Shown here: positions 1 to 16,096 of the stretch, piece after piece
Layout: every line of letters begins with the position of its first letter
Position numbering within the stretch: position 1 is the first letter of the stretch
Source: Halomicronema hongdechloris C2206
GTDB lineage: Bacteria; Cyanobacteriota; Cyanobacteriia; Phormidesmidales; Phormidesmidaceae
Reading direction: 5' to 3'
Assembly (NCBI RefSeq): GCF_002075285.3
Contig: NZ_CP021983.2
Location: 4,920,001 to 4,952,000 of the forward strand
DNA length: 32,000 nucleotides
Translations under genes and position numbers: made by a program
Notes under the pieces: model-generated
Database searches by the model: none
What the model was told of the DNA's origin: nothing
The model's input: only the letters and a program-made list of their open reading frames with translations

Positions 1-573
1 ATCAAATACAAATTCTGCGGGAGCCAGGCGATCGCGGATTTGCAGGATCAGCGATCGATTTTCTGCCTCACTTAAATAAGGAGACACCCCTTCCATCAGG
101 ATCAGCAGGGGCTGATCGACAGAGTGCTGGATCTGATCGATCCAGGAAAAATCGAGAATTGACGCTGGAATGAACCGATAGCGATCATTTTCTTGAAAAA
201 ACCTCTGGCGAAACTCAATCACTTCAGGAAAGTCAACGTCATACCAACGCACGCCGCCGTTATCCAGGCGGGTAAAGCGAGTACACAATCCGCAGCCCAG
301 GTTGACTACAACGGCATTGGGATGAGCCTTAAGGAATTGTTGGGTTATGTGATCGTATTCCTGCACTCGAACCACAACACCCAGTTGGGAAGCCCAGCCC
401 TTGGCATATTTGTCAAAGTCATAATTCGTTCGCTCGACAATTTCAACTGCTTCAGGATCTTGAAAAAAGCTATCCGAGCGCTGGGTCTCAACGTAGCGAG
501 CATACAGGGTAATCATTAGGGTTTCGGCTACCCCAGTTAATGGATCTGCGGATTCTTTCTGAGTGCTAGTCAT
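1..573 (-). CDS. Class I SAM-dependent methyltransferase (TcmP / leucine-carboxyl-MTase-like); C-terminus lies beyond the window edge
   Basis: Not in the ORF track because it leaves the window. Reverse-strand ATG at 573-571 opens MTSTQKESADPLTGVAETLMITLYARYVETQRSDSFFQDPEAVEIVE...NAVVVNLGCGLCTRFTRLD...LLILMEGVSPYLSE, with no stop down to nt 1. VVNLGCG is a SAM-binding motif I. Confidence 0.7.
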   Translation of the reverse strand, partial: MTSTQKESADPLTGVAETLMITLYARYVETQRSDSFFQDPEAVEIVERTNYDFDKYAKGWASQLGVVVRVQEYDHITQQFLKAHPNAVVVNLGCGLCTRFTRLDNGGVRWYDVDFPEVIEFRQRFFQENDRYRFIPASILDFSWIDQIQHSVDQPLLILMEGVSPYLSEAENRSLILQIRDRLAPAEFVFD

Positions 574-781
574 GGGTATTCACCGTTGTTTAGGTAGTGC
601 GATCGCAAGCCGACATGGGTCAAATCAGCCGTCTCAGGTCTGTATCATGCCCTTCTCTCAAGACCCGGTGCTTGGAAAAGCGCTGGATGGGCCTGATTAT
701 TAATGAGAATATCTCTCAATAGTTTAGGGATATTGTAACTTGACTAACGGTCAGTAGGGGCTCACAAACCATGACTCTGCT

Positions 782-2431
782 TCAGGTAGATGTCCCAAAA
801 ACTGCGCCTCCCCAGGCCAACAGCATTGAAAACGCGATCGCGGCGATCGCCTGGCGAGCCATCAGCCCCACTGCAAACCGCATCGACTGTTCGCGGGCAA
901 TGGTGAGTGCAGTGACCAAGCAGGGCAGCAACACCCCGGCCAGGTACACCCCCGTCAAGATTTGCAGGGGGGTGAGTACTGCCAATGTGTCTGGTTCGGC
1001 AAAGAGCAGCAGTCCGTCTTTGCGAATCGAGGCCAAGATCACAGGTACAGCCGCCTCTGGAGGCAGACCAAACAACCCCATCAGGGGATTGATCCAGCCT
1101 GCTAGAGCAATGATCAGACCGAGCCAGTCCAACACTGAAGCGATGACAGTAATCACTAAAAAGATGGGAATCGCATTGGTGAAAAACTGGCTGAGGGTGC
1201 TTTGGGTTTCGCGCCAGATGGCCGACCAGCGGGGCATTTCCAAAAAGGTGCGCCGCTCAATCATCAGGGCGTTGTGGGGAGAGCGGGCGGCTTTAGGCGC
1301 AATCAGGCGGGTGTAGATCAGCGTGGTCAGGGTCAAATAGCCCAGGTAGGGCACCACTAAACCGGGCAAATTGGCAGCGCTGAAGACCCCCAGGGTGGCC
1401 CCGAACTGGTAAGAACAGGCGGAGCCAAAAGCGATCGCACTCACACAGGTCTGCCGGGAACAACTGGAACAGGCGCGAGTGCTGATCACGGCGGGCACAT
1501 TGCAGCCAAACCCCATAATTACCCGCACCAAATCTCGCCCGGATAGGCCAAACGGTCTCAGGAGTGGATGCAGCGCTACGGTAAGGCGCTCCACCAATCC
1601 GCTGGCCTTGTATGCGCCTAGAAACAGGGCATACAGCATCACCGTCGGCACCGCCCAGACGAATAACAGCGGCCCCATGGTGACTAAGCCATAGCGGCCA
1701 ATCAAAATCGCCTCTAGCAGCGAGGGGGCCTGAGCTAGGACATTGACCAAAGGGGCTAATCCGGCTTGTATCAGTGGATCGAGCAGGCCCGCGACGCCAT
1801 TGGCAACCCAAACGGCAATGACCGCAGGCAACAGCAGCAATAGGATGGCCAGCAACCCACCCCAGCGGGGATGTTCCAACCAGGTGGGCGCGGGCTCGAT
1901 TCGCCAGCCCGCCGGAATCGGGTGCCATTGCTGGGGGAAGGGAACTGGAGTCTGCAACCCCTCTAGAATCTGCTGGCGTTGTCCTGGGCTTAAATGACGG
2001 GCATCTACAGGAATAAACTTCACCTGAAAGGTTTGCTCCCAACGGCCCACAACCTGCTGGGTGAAGTCAGAGGGCAATACCTTATCCCAGAAGGTGACGA
2101 TCACCAGCCCCTGTTTCCCAGCCACGAGCGGCAACAAATCCGCCAGATCATCATCCATGTGGGTCGCTTGAACGACTAACAAAATCCGGTCATGGGCCTG
2201 AAGTTGCGCCAGGGCAGTTCGGGTAGTGGCAGTGTCAGAGCGAAAGAGAATGCCGGGGGTGTCGATAAAGGCATTGTCTCGGGTCTGATAGGTCTCGCAG
2301 GCGATCGTCGAGCCCTGAATACTAGTGCTGGTGGGCGATCGCCCCGTGAGCGCTGCGGCCAGTTCAGATTTGCCGGTGCTTTCTTTGCCGACAATGACGG
2401 TGGTGCGTTGGGTGGGTGGTGCGGTGGGCAT
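782..2431 (-). CDS. feoB: FeoB-family GTPase-permease (short form, 549 aa)
   Basis: N-terminal small GTPase (P-loop GKESTGKS, DTPG) followed by a polytopic membrane domain. It carries the FeoB gate motif IMGFGCNVPAVISTR (E. coli FeoB has IVGFGCNVPSVMGAR). It lies downstream of, and on the same strand as, the operator-fronted flavoprotein gene. Confidence 0.8.
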   Translation of the reverse strand: MPTAPPTQRTTVIVGKESTGKSELAAALTGRSPTSTSIQGSTIACETYQTRDNAFIDTPGILFRSDTATTRTALAQLQAHDRILLVVQATHMDDDLADLLPLVAGKQGLVIVTFWDKVLPSDFTQQVVGRWEQTFQVKFIPVDARHLSPGQRQQILEGLQTPVPFPQQWHPIPAGWRIEPAPTWLEHPRWGGLLAILLLLLPAVIAVWVANGVAGLLDPLIQAGLAPLVNVLAQAPSLLEAILIGRYGLVTMGPLLFVWAVPTVMLYALFLGAYKASGLVERLTVALHPLLRPFGLSGRDLVRVIMGFGCNVPAVISTRACSSCSRQTCVSAIAFGSACSYQFGATLGVFSAANLPGLVVPYLGYLTLTTLIYTRLIAPKAARSPHNALMIERRTFLEMPRWSAIWRETQSTLSQFFTNAIPIFLVITVIASVLDWLGLIIALAGWINPLMGLFGLPPEAAVPVILASIRKDGLLLFAEPDTLAVLTPLQILTGVYLAGVLLPCLVTALTIAREQSMRFAVGLMARQAIAAIAFSMLLAWGGAVFGTST

Positions 2432-2540
2432 GGGGGATAGGTTGGAAGTGGATGGGTAGGGGGGAAAAGTTTTAAGTTCTTAGTTTTGTTCGCGCAGCGA
2501 CTCCAGAGGAGTAATTTTGAGTTGGCGGCTGAGTAGAAGA

Positions 2541-2561
2541 ATTCAAAATTCAAAATTCAAA
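2541..2561. repeat. Heptamer tandem repeat ATTCAAA x3 (STRR-like) in the flavoprotein/FeoB spacer
   Basis: Direct reading of attcaaa attcaaa attcaaa. Confidence 0.6.
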
Positions 2562-2566
2562 CCTTG

Positions 2567-3691
2567 CTAGCAGATACAGTCGTTGCTGCAGCAGGAGAGA
2601 TCGTCGAGGAAAAGTCCAGCCTCGCGGTAAGCCTCAAGGGGGGTGGGGTCGAGATCGAGGCGCTGGGCGATCGCATGGGCCACCACTGCAAAGCGCTGGC
2701 GGAACTTGTAGATGAAGCAGAAAATCAGGTCGCCATGGCGCACGGAAGGACCGCTCACAAAGAGACCTGGGGTGAGGGTAGATTCGTCATTTTCCGTGAG
2801 GGCGGCATAGCCCTCGGACCAATCGAATAGGGGAGCAATCTGCTTCAAGCTGGTGTCAAAACCGGTGCAGAGAATGGGGGGATGGGCCGTCACCCACTTC
2901 TGGTATTCGCTGTAGACCGCGTAGCCGCCGGGAACAGGTTTGACTTCTTCAATGGGGGCGTCACCCACCATGTCTAGGCGACCGGTGCGATAGACAAATT
3001 CCAGACGCTGCAGGGTGTAGGGCGATAGGGATACGCTGGGATCCGTGTCAGGATCGGCCCAGGCTCCAGTGCGATCAAGCACACCGACTTTCTTTCCCAG
3101 CGCGACTAAATTGGTAGCGGCATCCATGCCGCTTTCGTAACCGCCGATGATGAGGAATTCGTCGCCCTCTAGCTCCGCCCACGACCGAATTTGAGTGTTG
3201 TGGAGGCAGTGCTCTGCCCCCGGAAAGGGATTGAGCTGGGGGTATTGATATTCCCCGGCGGCCCAAATGACAAACTGGGTAGACAGGTCACCGCTGCTGG
3301 TGTGCAGGGTAAAGCCTCCCTGGGGCAAGGGCTCAACGGTTTTTACATCGACTTCTGTCTGAATTGGCAGCTCAAAATGATCGGCAACGGTCTGCAGGTA
3401 CAGGGCGTACTGCTTGCCGCTGATATGTTCGCGCCGAAATGCGATCGCAGGCGAAGTCTTCAAGGTCACTGCATTCAGGTCGAGCAGGCCAAAACCATGG
3501 CTTGGGAATGATGGGGTGATGAAGTTCATCTCCTGGGGCCAACGGCTAAAGGAGGCTCCGACCTGGTGTCTTTCTAAAATTGTGAAGTGCTCTAGACCCA
3601 GTTCTTTGAGCACGACGCCACAGCCGACGCCTGCCGCTCCGGCACCCACAATCACAACGTCATAGGACAGCTTCGTTTGGGGTTGGCTCAC
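2567..3691 (-). CDS. FAD/NAD(P)-binding oxidoreductase (pyridine-nucleotide-disulfide / flavin monooxygenase-like) with a C-terminal Cys cluster
   Basis: GTG start. Rossmann dinucleotide motif DVVIVGAGAAGVG at the N-terminus and a second one, LIIGGYESGMDAA. The protein ends in ...DDLSCCSNDCIC. A Fur-family operator lies about 30 nt upstream. Confidence 0.75.
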   Translation of the reverse strand: MSQPQTKLSYDVVIVGAGAAGVGCGVVLKELGLEHFTILERHQVGASFSRWPQEMNFITPSFPSHGFGLLDLNAVTLKTSPAIAFRREHISGKQYALYLQTVADHFELPIQTEVDVKTVEPLPQGGFTLHTSSGDLSTQFVIWAAGEYQYPQLNPFPGAEHCLHNTQIRSWAELEGDEFLIIGGYESGMDAATNLVALGKKVGVLDRTGAWADPDTDPSVSLSPYTLQRLEFVYRTGRLDMVGDAPIEEVKPVPGGYAVYSEYQKWVTAHPPILCTGFDTSLKQIAPLFDWSEGYAALTENDESTLTPGLFVSGPSVRHGDLIFCFIYKFRQRFAVVAHAIAQRLDLDPTPLEAYREAGLFLDDLSCCSNDCIC

Positions 3692-3724
3692 GCTGATTTA
3701 CCCGAATCACTGAGAATATTAGAA

Positions 3725-3739
3725 TGATAATCATTATCA
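3725..3739. promoter_or_regulatory. Fur-family (Zur-type) operator, copy 1
   Basis: Perfect 7-1-7 palindrome TGATAAT-C-ATTATCA. Extended 3719-3741 TTAGAATGATAATCATTATCAAA. Sits upstream of the 2567..3691 gene. Confidence 0.75.
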
Positions 3740-3829
3740 AATCTCTTGTCTAGGAAATGGGTACAAGGTTTCAGGTTCACGGTGTATGGCTCATGAAATA
3801 GGGGCACCTTGCACCGTACACCTTGCACC

Positions 3830-4073
3830 CTAAACCTCATCCATCAACGCCACTGTTGTCAGACCGAGGCCGATACCGACCGTAGCGAAAGCGCTCACTA
3901 CTGACAGCCGCTGCATCATTCCAGCACCAATCGAAGCTTTTTCGAGCCACTGGCGGCCAGACGGCGGCTAACCCCAGAATCGTGAGCACGGATGCCAACC
4001 CCAGGCTAAAGCCACCTAAAAGCACTAACCCGTAGGCGATTTGGTGTAAGGCGATCGCGCTCAGCAGCAGGCT
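3830..4073 (-). pseudogene. Orphan C-terminal fragment of an RcnA-like (Ni/Co efflux type) membrane protein, frameshifted, abutting IS630
   Basis: The frame opens exactly at the IS boundary: SLLLSAIALHQIAYGLVLLGGFSLGLASVLTILGLAAV. After a frameshift a second frame continues SGRQWLEKASIGAGMMQRLSVVSAFATVGIGLGLTTVALMDEV-stop. This resembles the last two helices of E. coli RcnA as I recall them. No N-terminal part is present. Confidence 0.35.
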
Positions 4074-4086
4074 TTATACTAATTCT

Positions 4087-4653
4087 CTAGATTCCAGCTA
4101 CAGATAAAGCCTCCAATATGGAGGCTCTCCCAGTAATCGAGGCAACCGTGGCTGAGGTCAATGCAAGCAACTGCTCCTTGATAAGGTGTCGCAGTTCATC
4201 TAAGGTTTTGAGTCGTTTCCAGCGCAGCCGCTTTTTGAGGTATTGCCACACTTGCTCAATGGGATTGCATTCCGGCGCATGGGCCGGTTGAAACATCAAG
4301 AGGAGATTGTCTGGTACCTGTAAGCGTTTGGCTTTGTGCCATCCGGCTTGAGCTAACTGGATGATTAAAATACTGTCGGGGTATTGCTGAGCGACCAGTT
4401 CCAGAAAACGCTGAAAGCAGTCGGTATTCCAGTGGGTGAATTCGTAGAAAAAATGCTCACCTGTCGCTGGCTCCACCACGCCGTAGAGATAGGTGGCCTG
4501 AAAGGTCCAACGAACTTTGCCCACGGGTTTGACCCCACGTGCCGTAATCCGTCGTCCCGTGAGGGTTTTCAAGCCAACGCGACTCTCATCCTGGCAGAAG
4601 CATCGCACCGAACCACTCCAGCCCAAGACACTGATGGCGAAGAACGCCAGCAT
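4087..4653 (-). CDS. IS630 transposase, DDE catalytic part (orfB)
   Basis: Contains CFCQDESRVGLKT ... LIIQLAQAGWHKA ... PAHAPECNPIEQVWQYLK, the typical IS630/Tc1 DDE_3 pattern. Its frame is +1 relative to orfA across the A7 run. Removing one A would fuse the two ORFs. Confidence 0.8.
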   Translation of the reverse strand: MLAFFAISVLGWSGSVRCFCQDESRVGLKTLTGRRITARGVKPVGKVRWTFQATYLYGVVEPATGEHFFYEFTHWNTDCFQRFLELVAQQYPDSILIIQLAQAGWHKAKRLQVPDNLLLMFQPAHAPECNPIEQVWQYLKKRLRWKRLKTLDELRHLIKEQLLALTSATVASITGRASILEALSVAGI

Positions 4654-4663
4654 CGCGAGGTTC

Positions 4664-5179
4664 TCAGCCAGTTTTTTTATATGCGACTATCTGCGCTTCG
4701 TCCGGTTTATCGCTTTTCGGCCGCACCACTTTGGGTGCAGCCCCAAGCCGGTAGTACACCCACTTATGAACCGTTTTGTACGGAGCCACAATCCCCAATT
4801 CCAGGGCCAACCATTGCCGGATCGCCTCGTAGCTCTCAAAGCCTTCCGGTTGCTCTAAACGATTTCGCAAGGCGGTTTCGGCCCAGTCGGGTAGCGTCGA
4901 TTTGCCGCCCGGATGGGGTTTGTGGCTCCGTAACGCTTCTAATCCCCCTTGGCGGTAACGCTTGGCCCATGTCTGTATCGTCACTCGATGACGTCCCAAC
5001 AATGAGGCCGCCGCTTGCTGTATCGTCTCGGCTTGCTCACTTTTGAGGAGGTAGAGCAGTTGAATCCGTTCTTTATCCGAGGCTGTTGTTTGATTTCTCA
5101 GAAGCGCTTTGAGCGCTTGCTCGCTTTCCGTTATTTCGAGGTGATAGACGCCTGACATCGCTCGTGTTGAGTGCTTCAA
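4664..5179 (-). CDS. IS630 transposase, N-terminal HTH part (orfA)
   Basis: 171 aa with helix-turn-helix-like segments (ETIQQAAASLLGRHRVTIQTWAKRYRQGG). It ends at an A7 run (T7 on the plus strand, 4672-4678), where the next frame continues. Confidence 0.8.
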   Translation of the reverse strand: MKHSTRAMSGVYHLEITESEQALKALLRNQTTASDKERIQLLYLLKSEQAETIQQAAASLLGRHRVTIQTWAKRYRQGGLEALRSHKPHPGGKSTLPDWAETALRNRLEQPEGFESYEAIRQWLALELGIVAPYKTVHKWVYYRLGAAPKVVRPKSDKPDEAQIVAYKKTG

Positions 5180-5220
5180 CTCCTGTCTAGCATCTGTAGC
5201 CTCTACTTACAGAATTGGTA

Positions 5221-6064
5221 TAAATCCAGCAAATAACTCTGCCACCCCTCATCGGGAATCAGTATCCACATGGCAACCAGGTTCCACGTGGCGGTTGCCA
5301 AAATGGGGGAGCGATCAGCATCAGGAACATCGGCCCAGGCGAGTTGCCGCACCTTGCCGGGCAGCCCTGCCAGCAGAGCGGGCAAATCTGCTTAATGATC
5401 CGAAGATTGCTTTAGGGCACGGACGTTGTCCCAGGTGAGGACGCCGACGCTGTTATCCTGATTGGCTGACGCCAAATAGGCTCCCTCGGAGGACCATTTT
5501 AAGATTCGACTGGCGGCCATCAGTTCCCATTCATATCGAGGGGAAATCCAGCGAGACGTTTCCCAAATTTGAATCCGTTGCTGAGCCGACACCGCTAGAT
5601 GAGTGCCATCGGGAGACCAGCCCAGATCTTGCACATTGGCGGGCAATTCCAGGGTGGCTAGGGTTTCACTCTGGTCAGCATCCCAAATATGAACCGTTTT
5701 GCCACAGTTGTAAGCGAGCCAGGGTTGATGGGGGTGCCACTGCAGGCGATCGAGCCAGGTTGAACCCCAGGTCAGCGTCTTTACCAACTCAGGTGAGTCA
5801 GCAGACAGCCGCCAGAGTGTCACCGCCCCGGCTTGCCCGGCTGCCGCCAACCACTGCCCCTTCCCCGGAAAACCCTAGGGCATCAATGGAAGCGCCATTG
5901 GCGGCCTGCAATATGGTTTCTTGAAAGTCTTGCCACAGAACCACCTCCCCGGCCCCAGAAGCGATCGCCAATCTATTCCCGACCGGCGACCAGACCAGGG
6001 CGGTAATGTACTCCGACAGCGATCGGTGAACCTGTAGTTCTACCAGGGATTTGAGAGAGAGCAT
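5221..6064 (-). pseudogene. WD40-repeat protein gene, disrupted (frameshift, in-frame stop, 3-prime end displaced by IS630)
   Basis: Three collinear ORF pieces (5798..6121, 5392..5850, 5203..5385) carry WD-type repeats (VTLWRL, VHIWDA, IQIWET, VGVLTW). Deleting one nt of the C4 run at 5863-5866 joins pieces 1 and 2 (..GFSGKGQWLAAAGQAGAVTLW..). TAA at 5392-5394 is in frame with piece 3. Piece 3 reads into the IS and stops at 5203-5205. A plausible ATG is at 6064-6062. Confidence 0.6.
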
Positions 6065-6133
6065 AATATAGCCTGAACCAATGGAATGGACTGACCTGCC
6101 GCCAGAAAATCTGACCCGCACGCCATAATAAAG

Positions 6134-7497: not shown

Positions 7498-7899
7498 TTA
7501 TAAGGTAATGACCTGATCAGGGGGATTGCCGCTCAATGCGGTGTATAAGTCTGGAAAACAACCAACGGTTACTCCTTCAACCACATCTTTGACGATGCAC
7601 TTCCCCGGTTCTTTTCGCCCGGTTCCGTCAGGATTACACCAACGTGGTTCACCTTCTGCCAGGTTCCGTTCCAGGGCACATAGATCGCACATCATCAACA
7701 GAATGTTTCGTTTTTCTGCCACCTTTGCCAATCGTTCTCCAATCGGATCGCCCTTTCGCAAAACGAAGCAGTTTTCATCGAAGAAGAACATTCCCACAAC
7801 TTCAACTCCATGCACACCCATTTCTAGCTGTGGCAGAATCATTTGCCCTAACTTGTAAGTACCCCCGCGAGGATGGGTAAAAACATAAGCAACTTTCAT
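7498..7899 (-). CDS. DsrE/TusD-like family protein with extra Cys residues
   Basis: 133 aa, MKVAYVFTHP...VVGMFFFDENCFVL...ILLMMCDLCALERNL. The layout is like TusD/DsrE (FFY.DGV ... VCV.AA..RG). Only 17 nt separate it from the thrS stop, so co-transcription is likely. Confidence 0.55.
   Translation of the reverse strand: MKVAYVFTHPRGGTYKLGQMILPQLEMGVHGVEVVGMFFFDENCFVLRKGDPIGERLAKVAEKRNILLMMCDLCALERNLAEGEPRWCNPDGTGRKEPGKCIVKDVVEGVTVGCFPDLYTALSGNPPDQVITL

Positions 7900-14602: not shown

Positions 14603-16096
<1,494 letters not shown>

Follow-up and report, generated by a model that had tools for sequence, protein, structure and literature searches.

A flavoprotein with a tetracysteine tail and a short FeoB-like permease: a conserved pair of zinc-starvation islands, very probably under Zur control in Halomicronema hongdechloris

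In a 32,000-nucleotide (nt) stretch of the genome of the cyanobacterium Halomicronema hongdechloris, called the window below, two neighbouring genes of the minus strand code for a flavoprotein that ends in a cluster of four cysteines and, behind it, for a short GTPase-permease of the FeoB superfamily. Such pairs form a conserved module of zinc-starvation islands in both bacteria and archaea, and the operon in the window is very probably a member of this module, controlled by Zur and switched on at low zinc. As to what the two proteins do together, we consider it an even bet that this low-zinc-induced bicistronic operon provides a thiol-lined importer of a divalent metal, likely zinc, and a thiol reductase or acceptor arm dedicated to it; both chemistry and substrate are deduced from the sequences and their company.

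Zur regulons are well mapped, yet part of their content has no known function. A FeoB-superfamily transporter under Zur control and with a flavoprotein as its partner is without precedent, and the literature notes the pair at annotation level only. The first-pass annotation of this DNA had called the pairing unrecognised. [quoted passage not shown] The pair is thereby among the most strongly calprotectin-induced units reported in S. aureus (PMC5480029). In the literature that we searched, outside which most subscription journals lie, we found neither a functional study of the pair nor a description of it as a conserved cross-domain module.

Conservation of the pair and its genomic company

A scan of one genome per species returned 39 loci of the permease subfamily, at 33-90% identity; the next matches, at 26% or less, were true FeoBs. 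Five of these loci had too little upstream DNA to be judged. The flavoprotein gene accompanies the permease gene in 30 of the 34 assessable loci and in none of 41 true-FeoB loci, in the following arrangements:

27 loci: flavoprotein gene directly upstream of the permease gene, same strand (in L025 an S14 gene intervenes)
1 locus: order flavoprotein, COG0523, permease
1 locus: flavoprotein gene divergent from the permease gene
1 locus: flavoprotein gene downstream of the permease gene
4 loci: flavoprotein gene not found in the available sequence

The gap between the two genes is often 0-100 nt, or their reading frames overlap. Conservation of the adjacency, on which the first-pass annotation had staked its proposal beforehand, extends through cyanobacteria and far beyond them: among the hosts of the pair are Cyanobacteria, Chloroflexota, Planctomycetota, Verrucomicrobiota, Spirochaetota, Myxococcota, Gammaproteobacteria, Bacillota, Actinomycetota, Halobacteria, Nitrosopumilus and Thermoplasmatota. 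It is present in all six staphylococcal and all three actinobacterial loci examined. The module is rare, being found in 5 of 301 sampled cyanobacterial genomes and 3 of 301 genomes of Actinomycetota, and a search of 1.84 billion representative proteins gave 135 clusters at E ≤ 1e-30. We found no orthologue in Staphylococcus microti (L079).

The company of the pair is that of zinc starvation. Within 10 kb, many loci hold genes for COG0523 GTPases, S14 or L33, FolE2, DksA, CysRS, HisI, carbonic anhydrase or a ThrRS paralogue. On plasmids of Klebsiella pneumoniae, Pantoea, Paenibacillus, Haloferax and Halocatena, the pair likewise stands beside COG0523, S14, L33, folE2, dksA, cysS and hisI genes. 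The flavoprotein query matched 499 Klebsiella plasmid records, and large IncFIB/IncHI1B plasmids of K. pneumoniae carry the pair within a zinc-starvation cluster (folE2, dksA, cysS, hisI, COG0523). Upstream of the flavoprotein gene we found operators of each lineage's own Zur type, namely the cyanobacterial type (L008-L011, L015, L016), the Bacillales type (L036, L044, L046) and, in Gammaproteobacteria, the enterobacterial type (L030, L032).

Two arrangements on plasmids deserve description. An enterobacterial plasmid (NZ_CP097652.1, 6524-19585) and a Pantoea soli plasmid each bear a complete zinc-starvation island that includes the pair, with genes for carbonic anhydrase, folE2, dksA, two COG0523 proteins, two Fur-family repressors, cysS, and hisI or queD2. 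In haloarchaea (plasmid loci L004 and L007; L025), a 61-aa S14 gene separates the two genes of the pair, with a COG0523 gene reading divergently from that of the flavoprotein.

Not every part of the module is constant. Permeases of 381-450 amino acids (aa) without a G domain occur in Opitutales and other Verrucomicrobia, in Alkalihalobacterium and in Staphylococcus (L033, L037, L040, L041, L044, L094-L099), and wherever the sequence extends that far a COG0523 gene follows directly downstream. The staphylococcal permeases (~445 aa) have an unrelated N-terminal region of about 90 aa; the gene order there is flavoprotein, permease, COG0523, which fits NWMN_2483-2481. On plasmids of Paracoccus and Acaryochloris, in turn, the flavoprotein gene has no permease gene nearby, its neighbours being COG0523 and Fur-family genes; in Paracoccus the reading frames overlap. 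Thus, the conserved core consists of the flavoprotein and the Cys-rich permease, whereas the GTPase is variable and the tie to COG0523 is recurrent.

The permease-less loci also bear on an alternative, namely that the flavoprotein is mainly a partner of COG0523 proteins and mobilises zinc inside the cell, its release or re-routing from low-molecular-weight thiols, metallothionein or ribosomal proteins proceeding by thiol-disulfide chemistry, with the permease as an accessory or transporting otherwise. The loci of Paracoccus and Acaryochloris are in line with this, as are the CobW_C fusion of one family member (P0395), the haloarchaeal flavoprotein genes divergent from COG0523 genes, and the presence of the flavoprotein family in 29 of 71 sampled Staphylococcus genomes. 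However, the direct upstream position of the flavoprotein gene in 27 of the 34 assessable loci, often close or overlapping, argues for a joint function of the two proteins, and no zinc-store protein recurs in the neighbourhoods examined. We regard zinc mobilisation as distinctly unlikely to be the main role.

The operon and the zinc regulon of Halomicronema hongdechloris

The features of the operon and of its candidate regulator are as follows (positions in the window):

3725..3739: Zur-type operator, perfect 7-1-7 palindrome TGATAATnATTATCA / TGATAATCATTATCA, 34 nt from the GTG of the flavoprotein gene
3724..3752, minus strand: promoter-like site TAGACA-17-TATCAT, 10 of 12 consensus matches, -10 hexamer inside the operator
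3691..2567, minus strand: flavoprotein gene, GTG start, 374 aa; flavin adenine dinucleotide (FAD)/NAD(P)H oxidoreductase with two dinucleotide-binding domains, last 12 residues DDLSCCSNDCIC
2570..2605, minus strand: C-terminal tetracysteine tail DDLSCCSNDCIC, CC-x3-C-x-C, with C367, C368, C372 and C374
2432..2566, minus strand: spacer of 135 nt between the two genes
2431..782, minus strand: gene of the FeoB-superfamily GTPase-permease, 549 aa, of a distinct short subfamily
1952..2407, minus strand: N-terminal G domain of the permease, residues 9-160, with G1 GKESTGKS, G3 DTPG and G4 TFWD
1490..1513, minus strand: Gate motif 1, GFGCNVPA (Cys310), invariant in family alignments and common with canonical FeoB
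1454..1477, minus strand: R-x-C-S-x-C-x-R loop (Cys321, Cys324), specific to the subfamily and absent from the canonical FeoB of the genome
14603..15004, minus strand: Fur-family regulator gene (Pfam FUR, 69 bits), divergent from a hemB paralogue

The first-pass annotation had described a Fur-family operator ahead of a Cys-tailed flavoprotein of 374 aa and a short FeoB-family transporter behind it on the same strand, and all of these elements were recovered. The promoter-like site is a consensus match, and the operator, which is of the organism's Zur type, overlaps its -10 (3725-3739). On the minus strand the spacer shows neither a promoter-like nor a terminator-like site; it contains no copy of the operator, and an Rfam scan of window positions 500-4200 gave no match. 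Since the spacer has no terminator-like site, second operator or known RNA family, the two genes are likely co-transcribed, in agreement with the operator-controlled unit first proposed.

If up to two mismatches are allowed, 0.06 matches to the palindrome would be expected in the window; it holds three perfect copies and one copy with two mismatches. Sites that deviate from it at no more than one position number only five in the whole 5.58-Mb genome, three of them perfect, and a reversed control pattern has none. These five boxes front the flavoprotein-permease operon, a WD40/Crp-type region (6134), thrS (9801), which codes for a threonyl-tRNA synthetase paralogue (TIGR00418, 717 bits), a ZnuA cluster and an ArsR-family gene. 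The ZnuA cluster is composed of genes for a CobW_C protein, a phosphoesterase, an unassigned open reading frame (ORF) and ZnuA, and it mirrors Zur-regulated pAQ7 genes of Synechococcus PCC 7002 (PMC4628125). The same operator is hence found at canonical Zur targets and is rare elsewhere. Judged by its sequence and distribution, the palindrome is a Zur-type box, of a zinc rather than an iron regulon.

The surroundings of the operon in the window, with the thrS paralogue, the hemB paralogue, the Fur-family gene and further boxes, match the zinc-sparing cluster recognised in the first-pass annotation. The box with two mismatches (15022-15036) lies between the Fur-family gene and the hemB paralogue, and this context makes the Fur-family gene a candidate Zur; curated models (NCBIfam equivalogs) place it in none of Zur, Fur and PerR.

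A few further genes of the regulon and its vicinity may be mentioned here. A second flavoprotein, of a different family, is encoded divergently from the ZnuA cluster (genome 4896988-4897890, minus strand), and the box with one mismatch is common to both. It is 50% identical to G0132 of Synechococcus PCC 7002 and looks truncated, as its 300-aa ORF covers residues 71-339 of 421. In a zur mutant the pAQ7 neighbourhood of G0132 loses its repression, and TPEN induces it (PMC4628125). G0132, a Zur-regulated 'FAD-dependent oxidoreductase', was considered as a relative of the flavoprotein of the pair and was ruled out, as the two have no sequence similarity. The sole near-perfect box outside the island (genome 2188408-2188422) precedes a regulator gene of the ArsR/SmtB family (103 aa) and an ORF of 147 aa without a Pfam family. 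A SaoD/DsrE-family protein (window 7498-7899; NF040913, 200 bits) follows thrS, and its homologues adjoin the flavoprotein-permease pair in an Opitutales genome (L031:11718-12092, 56% identity) and an actinobacterial genome (L100:359-721, 63%); this protein may be a further member of zinc islands.

As for the immediate flanks of the operon, an insertion sequence of IS630 type lies just upstream (window 3837-5220), with a helix-turn-helix ORF at 4664-5179 and a DDE_3 ORF at 4087-4653. A 62-aa ORF at 3837-4025 resembles the C-terminal stump of a membrane metal-transporter gene interrupted by this element, and the WD40 ORFs on its far side (5392-6121) are likewise broken. As the upstream gene has been cut, the operon would therefore use its own promoter. 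Downstream, 208 nt after the permease gene, a leucine carboxyl methyltransferase-family (LCM) gene on the minus strand (window 1-573) runs off the window. No LCM gene stands beside the pair in the related loci L009 and L010, which have hisI and a carbonic-anhydrase gene there instead.

Features of the two proteins

The flavoprotein matches Pfam Pyr_redox_3 with 335 bits and gives weak FMO-like (flavin monooxygenase) and Lys_Orn_oxgnase matches. Its closest solved structure is PDB 3D1C from S. aureus Mu50, titled 'flavin-containing putative monooxygenase' (E 2.3e-79, residues 10-374 versus 5-369), the sequence of which also ends in a tail, CCEVSCTC. Full-length similarity and a CC-x3/4-C-x-C tail place the flavoprotein in the 3D1C family, and by sequence and context 3D1C is presumably NWMN_2483 itself. 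The AlphaFold2 model of the flavoprotein has a mean predicted local distance difference test (pLDDT) of 90 and aligns with 3D1C in Foldseek at template modelling (TM) scores of 0.88/0.92. Next in the fold ranking are Bdr/YpdA (TM 0.71-0.84), followed by thioredoxin-reductase-like ferredoxin reductases, small FMOs and thioredoxin reductases. We found no predicted membrane segment or export signal in the flavoprotein. The closest characterised relative is a disulfide reductase and not a ferric reductase, and the reductase-coupled iron uptake envisaged in the first-pass annotation gained no positive evidence.

Conservation of the tail is high among 30 aligned family members from ten phyla, ranging from cyanobacteria to haloarchaea and Bacillota: all four of its cysteines are kept in 27 of them. 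C325 is invariant, and position 24, in the first GxGxxG region, can be C, V, I, M, F, Q or T. Residues 361-374 are coil in the model, with pLDDT below 50 for 371-374, and the tail is predicted to be flexible. Eukaryote-like multidomain homologues keep a CC-x3-C-x3-C end and combine the flavoprotein, which sits behind the added domain, with a thioredoxin fold and BTHB (P0393, P0399), thioredoxin (P0408) or CobW_C (P0395); the thioredoxin-fold domains carry WCPPC or WCGPC. These thioredoxin-fold and CobW_C fusions support thiol-disulfide chemistry and a link to COG0523. Other long flavoprotein homologues carry RRM, PDZ or TPR domains, and none of the longer homologues is fused to the permease.

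It could be argued that the flavoprotein is instead a small flavin monooxygenase that makes or modifies a small molecule, for instance a metallophore or a thiol, moved by the permease. The PDB title of 3D1C suggests as much, Pyr_redox_3 also holds FMO-type enzymes, and besides the weak family matches small bacterial FMOs appear in the fold list at TM 0.69. Nevertheless, Bdr/YpdA outranks every FMO by fold, no biosynthetic genes lie beside the pair, and both the thioredoxin-domain fusions and the conserved tail with its four cysteines speak for thiol chemistry. A monooxygenase is therefore very unlikely. We give even chances to the proposal that the cysteine arm lets the flavoprotein serve the permease and COG0523 proteins as a thiol:disulfide reductase, a metal acceptor or both.

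A complex prediction of permease and flavoprotein gave a score of 0.02 against a mark of 0.32 and weighs neither for nor against binding. The pairwise identities of the two proteins correlate in a mirror-tree analysis (r = 0.76, with 0 of 2000 permutations as high), but this is not evidence of interaction, as the shared ancestry of the host loci alone would give it. No co-variation was seen between the tail cysteines and the CxxC of the permease, whose cysteines are nearly invariant.

In the permease, Pfam recognises MMR_HSR1 above the cut-off (41.7 bits) and Gate in two stretches (50.4 bits, cut-off 29.6), and FeoB_N remains under its 27-bit cut-off with 21.8 bits. The AlphaFold2 model has a pLDDT of 87 and a predicted TM score (pTM) of 0.83. 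The G domain is of NFeoB type, with its G1, G3 and G4 motifs, and its top Foldseek matches are all NFeoB crystal structures. It ends in the model at about residue 160; coil follows over 161-190 and the first membrane helix starts at 191, so that a helical S (GDI-like) domain is not predicted. The first-pass annotation had pointed to an atypical G4, and TFWD is indeed present, but it does not set the permease apart: the Asp of TxxD is invariant in the family, the canonical FeoB of this genome reads TMAD, and we dropped G4 as a distinguishing mark.

That canonical FeoB is a separate protein of 616 aa encoded at 1.169 Mb, with 524 bits for TIGR00437, and the permease is about 24% identical to it (tblastn). 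The permease itself reaches 89 bits for TIGR00437, where 315.65 are needed, and 32.7 for NF007105, where 683 are needed. No FeoA gene adjoins it; the genome has a single FeoA match, at 278 kb, and the window lies at 4.92 Mb. With a canonical FeoB elsewhere and FeoA not adjacent, the pair is not the housekeeping iron route. The separate FeoB and the sharp separation of the subfamily also sustain the earlier suggestion of a FeoB paralogue recruited for another role. It is hardly credible that the permease is an ordinary Fur-regulated FeoB iron transporter lying by chance beside an unrelated oxidoreductase. The palindrome does fit the generic 7-1-7 form of Fur-family boxes and some databases name homologues 'ferrous iron transport protein B', but chance does not sit well with an adjacency that is conserved across domains and absent at true-FeoB loci, nor does an iron regulon with a box that has only five genome sites and fronts ZnuA and thrS; the TIGR00437 score and the canonical FeoB speak against it as well.

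The permease shares with the FeoB of the genome three cysteines in its membrane part, in GFGCNVPA (C310), at C339 and in PCL(V/T)T (C504). In the CxxC loop of the subfamily, C324 never varies, and 31 of 32 members have C321. This loop has a family mean of 2.4 K+R and 0.1 D+E, which matches the other positively charged loops; the positive-inside rule and the cytoplasmic G domain suggest that it faces the cytoplasm. The permease tree divides the family into two major clades and unites its cyanobacterial sequences in one supported group. A 923-aa permease (P0256) was tried as a possible permease-flavoprotein fusion and discarded: its extension has neither flavoprotein similarity nor a Pfam domain and is probably a gene-call artefact.

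The permease is probably an importer of divalent metal, and we would put zinc as its main substrate at slightly short of even. An alternative is that it imports Fe(II), or Mn(II)/Co(II), under zinc starvation to load zinc-independent paralogues (FolE-type, HisI, gamma carbonic anhydrase, HemB), with the flavoprotein keeping thiols or the metal reduced. Several zinc-independent paralogues use Fe or Mn, and such paralogues travel with the module; moreover, the true FeoB of the genome has the same GFGCNVPA gate and the same cysteines C310, C339 and C504 as the permease, the G domain of which folds like NFeoB. Nonetheless, a canonical FeoB is already encoded in the genome, neither FeoA nor any other iron-uptake gene stands with the module at the loci examined, the operator is that of the ZnuA cluster, and the added CxxC loop and the lost S domain argue for a changed function. 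Import of these other metals appears rather unlikely. If true, it would mean that the zinc regulator itself provisions metal substitution for zinc-independent paralogues.

A possible mechanism and comparison with known systems

It is tempting to propose the following scheme for the thiol-lined importer and its flavoprotein partner. When zinc is short, the Zur-type repressor would leave the palindrome over the -10, and the flavoprotein and the permease would be made together. The permease would then import a thiophilic divalent metal, most likely Zn2+, using C310, C339, C504 and the CxxC loop on the presumed cytoplasmic side. The flavoprotein might serve as a dedicated NAD(P)H-driven thiol:disulfide reductase, and possibly as a metal acceptor; it would keep in the reduced state the thiols with which the permease and neighbouring COG0523 zinc chaperones bind metal, and would share in handing on the metal. 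We infer in this scheme the co-transcription, the substrate and the direction of transport, the side of the CxxC loop, the disulfide-reductase chemistry and the contact between the two proteins.

Several points weigh against this scheme. Zn2+ is redox-inert and needs no reduction, so that zinc uptake presents no obvious need for a flavoprotein; maintenance of thiols, hand-off or redox-gated release of the metal could answer this difficulty. The tail is kept in flavoproteins without a nearby permease (Acaryochloris and Paracoccus plasmids), and a tail-less flavoprotein is still paired with a CxxC permease (L027); therefore, the tail need not serve the permease. The CxxxxC redox pair by which classical disulfide reductases are marked is missing from the flavoprotein, its score for the YpdA model is far under the cut-off (75 versus 340 bits), and 3D1C was deposited as a putative monooxygenase. 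Fe(II)-transporting FeoB has the same three membrane cysteines as the permease, which leaves room for iron or manganese. Finally, the Fur-family gene of the island reaches no curated Zur model, and for Halomicronema hongdechloris we infer the zinc response, the co-transcription and the transport alike.

A bolder version can be formulated, which we consider possible but doubtful: the pair would represent a novel class of zinc importer across bacteria and archaea, in which Zn2+ passes from the CxxC loop to the tetracysteine arm of the NAD(P)H flavoprotein and on to COG0523, entry and hand-off are gated by the thiol redox state, and a COG0523 GTPase replaces the G domain where that has been lost. 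A role in zinc uptake or trafficking would, if true, bring a new type of transporter into zinc biology and a membrane partner for COG0523 chaperones, and it would explain the presence of a redox enzyme in the response to a redox-inert metal. The pair spans K. pneumoniae plasmids, cyanobacteria, soil Bacillota, marine Verrucomicrobia, haloarchaea and ammonia-oxidising archaea.

Among known systems, the S. aureus operon is the closest, with the same flavoprotein family (3D1C) and the same permease family directly downstream; it differs in that its permease (~445 aa) has no G domain and is followed by a COG0523 gene. Cg0795 of Corynebacterium glutamicum, a Zur-repressed oxidoreductase divergent from a COG0523 gene (PMC2823685), is a candidate relative by its description only. 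FeoB (COG0370, TIGR00437), as represented by E. coli FeoB and the genome's own FeoB, shares with the permease an NFeoB-like G domain, two Gate stretches, GFGCNVPA and C310/C339/C504. The permease departs from it by the missing S domain, the extra invariant CxxC loop, the lack of a FeoA or FeoC neighbour, the existence of members without a G domain, the conserved flavoprotein partner, and a Zur-type operator rather than iron control.

For the flavoprotein, Bdr/YpdA (PDB 7A76, 7A7B, 7APR) is the nearest characterised fold, a two-domain NADPH/FAD disulfide reductase. However, identity is 19-20%, TIGR04018 gives 75.2 bits where 339.9 are needed, and Bdr has no tetracysteine tail. The Cys in the N-terminal GxGxxG region, which we take to define YpdA, is not conserved in the flavoprotein family, where C24 varies. 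A small-thiol substrate in common with Bdr is unlikely, because hosts of the family use different low-molecular-weight thiols. CzcO (COG2072), which is encoded beside the cation diffusion facilitator (CDF) CzcD and was compared by description only, offers a precedent for a Pyr_redox_3-type flavoprotein beside a zinc transporter, and one close homologue of the flavoprotein is annotated as CzcO-type by JGI. Yet CzcD is an exporter of another fold than the permease, and we know of no Cys tail in CzcO.

The Mer system works in a way similar to the scheme: from a membrane protein with a cytoplasmic Cys pair, a thiophilic metal passes to a flavoprotein, which receives it at a mobile Cys pair near its C-terminus. 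The flavoprotein of the pair differs from MerA in that it lacks the CxxxxC active-site disulfide, which is also that of class I reductases; MerA stands at rank 43 in the fold list, and Zn2+ is irreducible. We therefore regard MerT/MerA, as well as NTRC, which the thioredoxin-domain fusions of the family resemble, as functional analogies to the pair rather than as systems of which it is a member.

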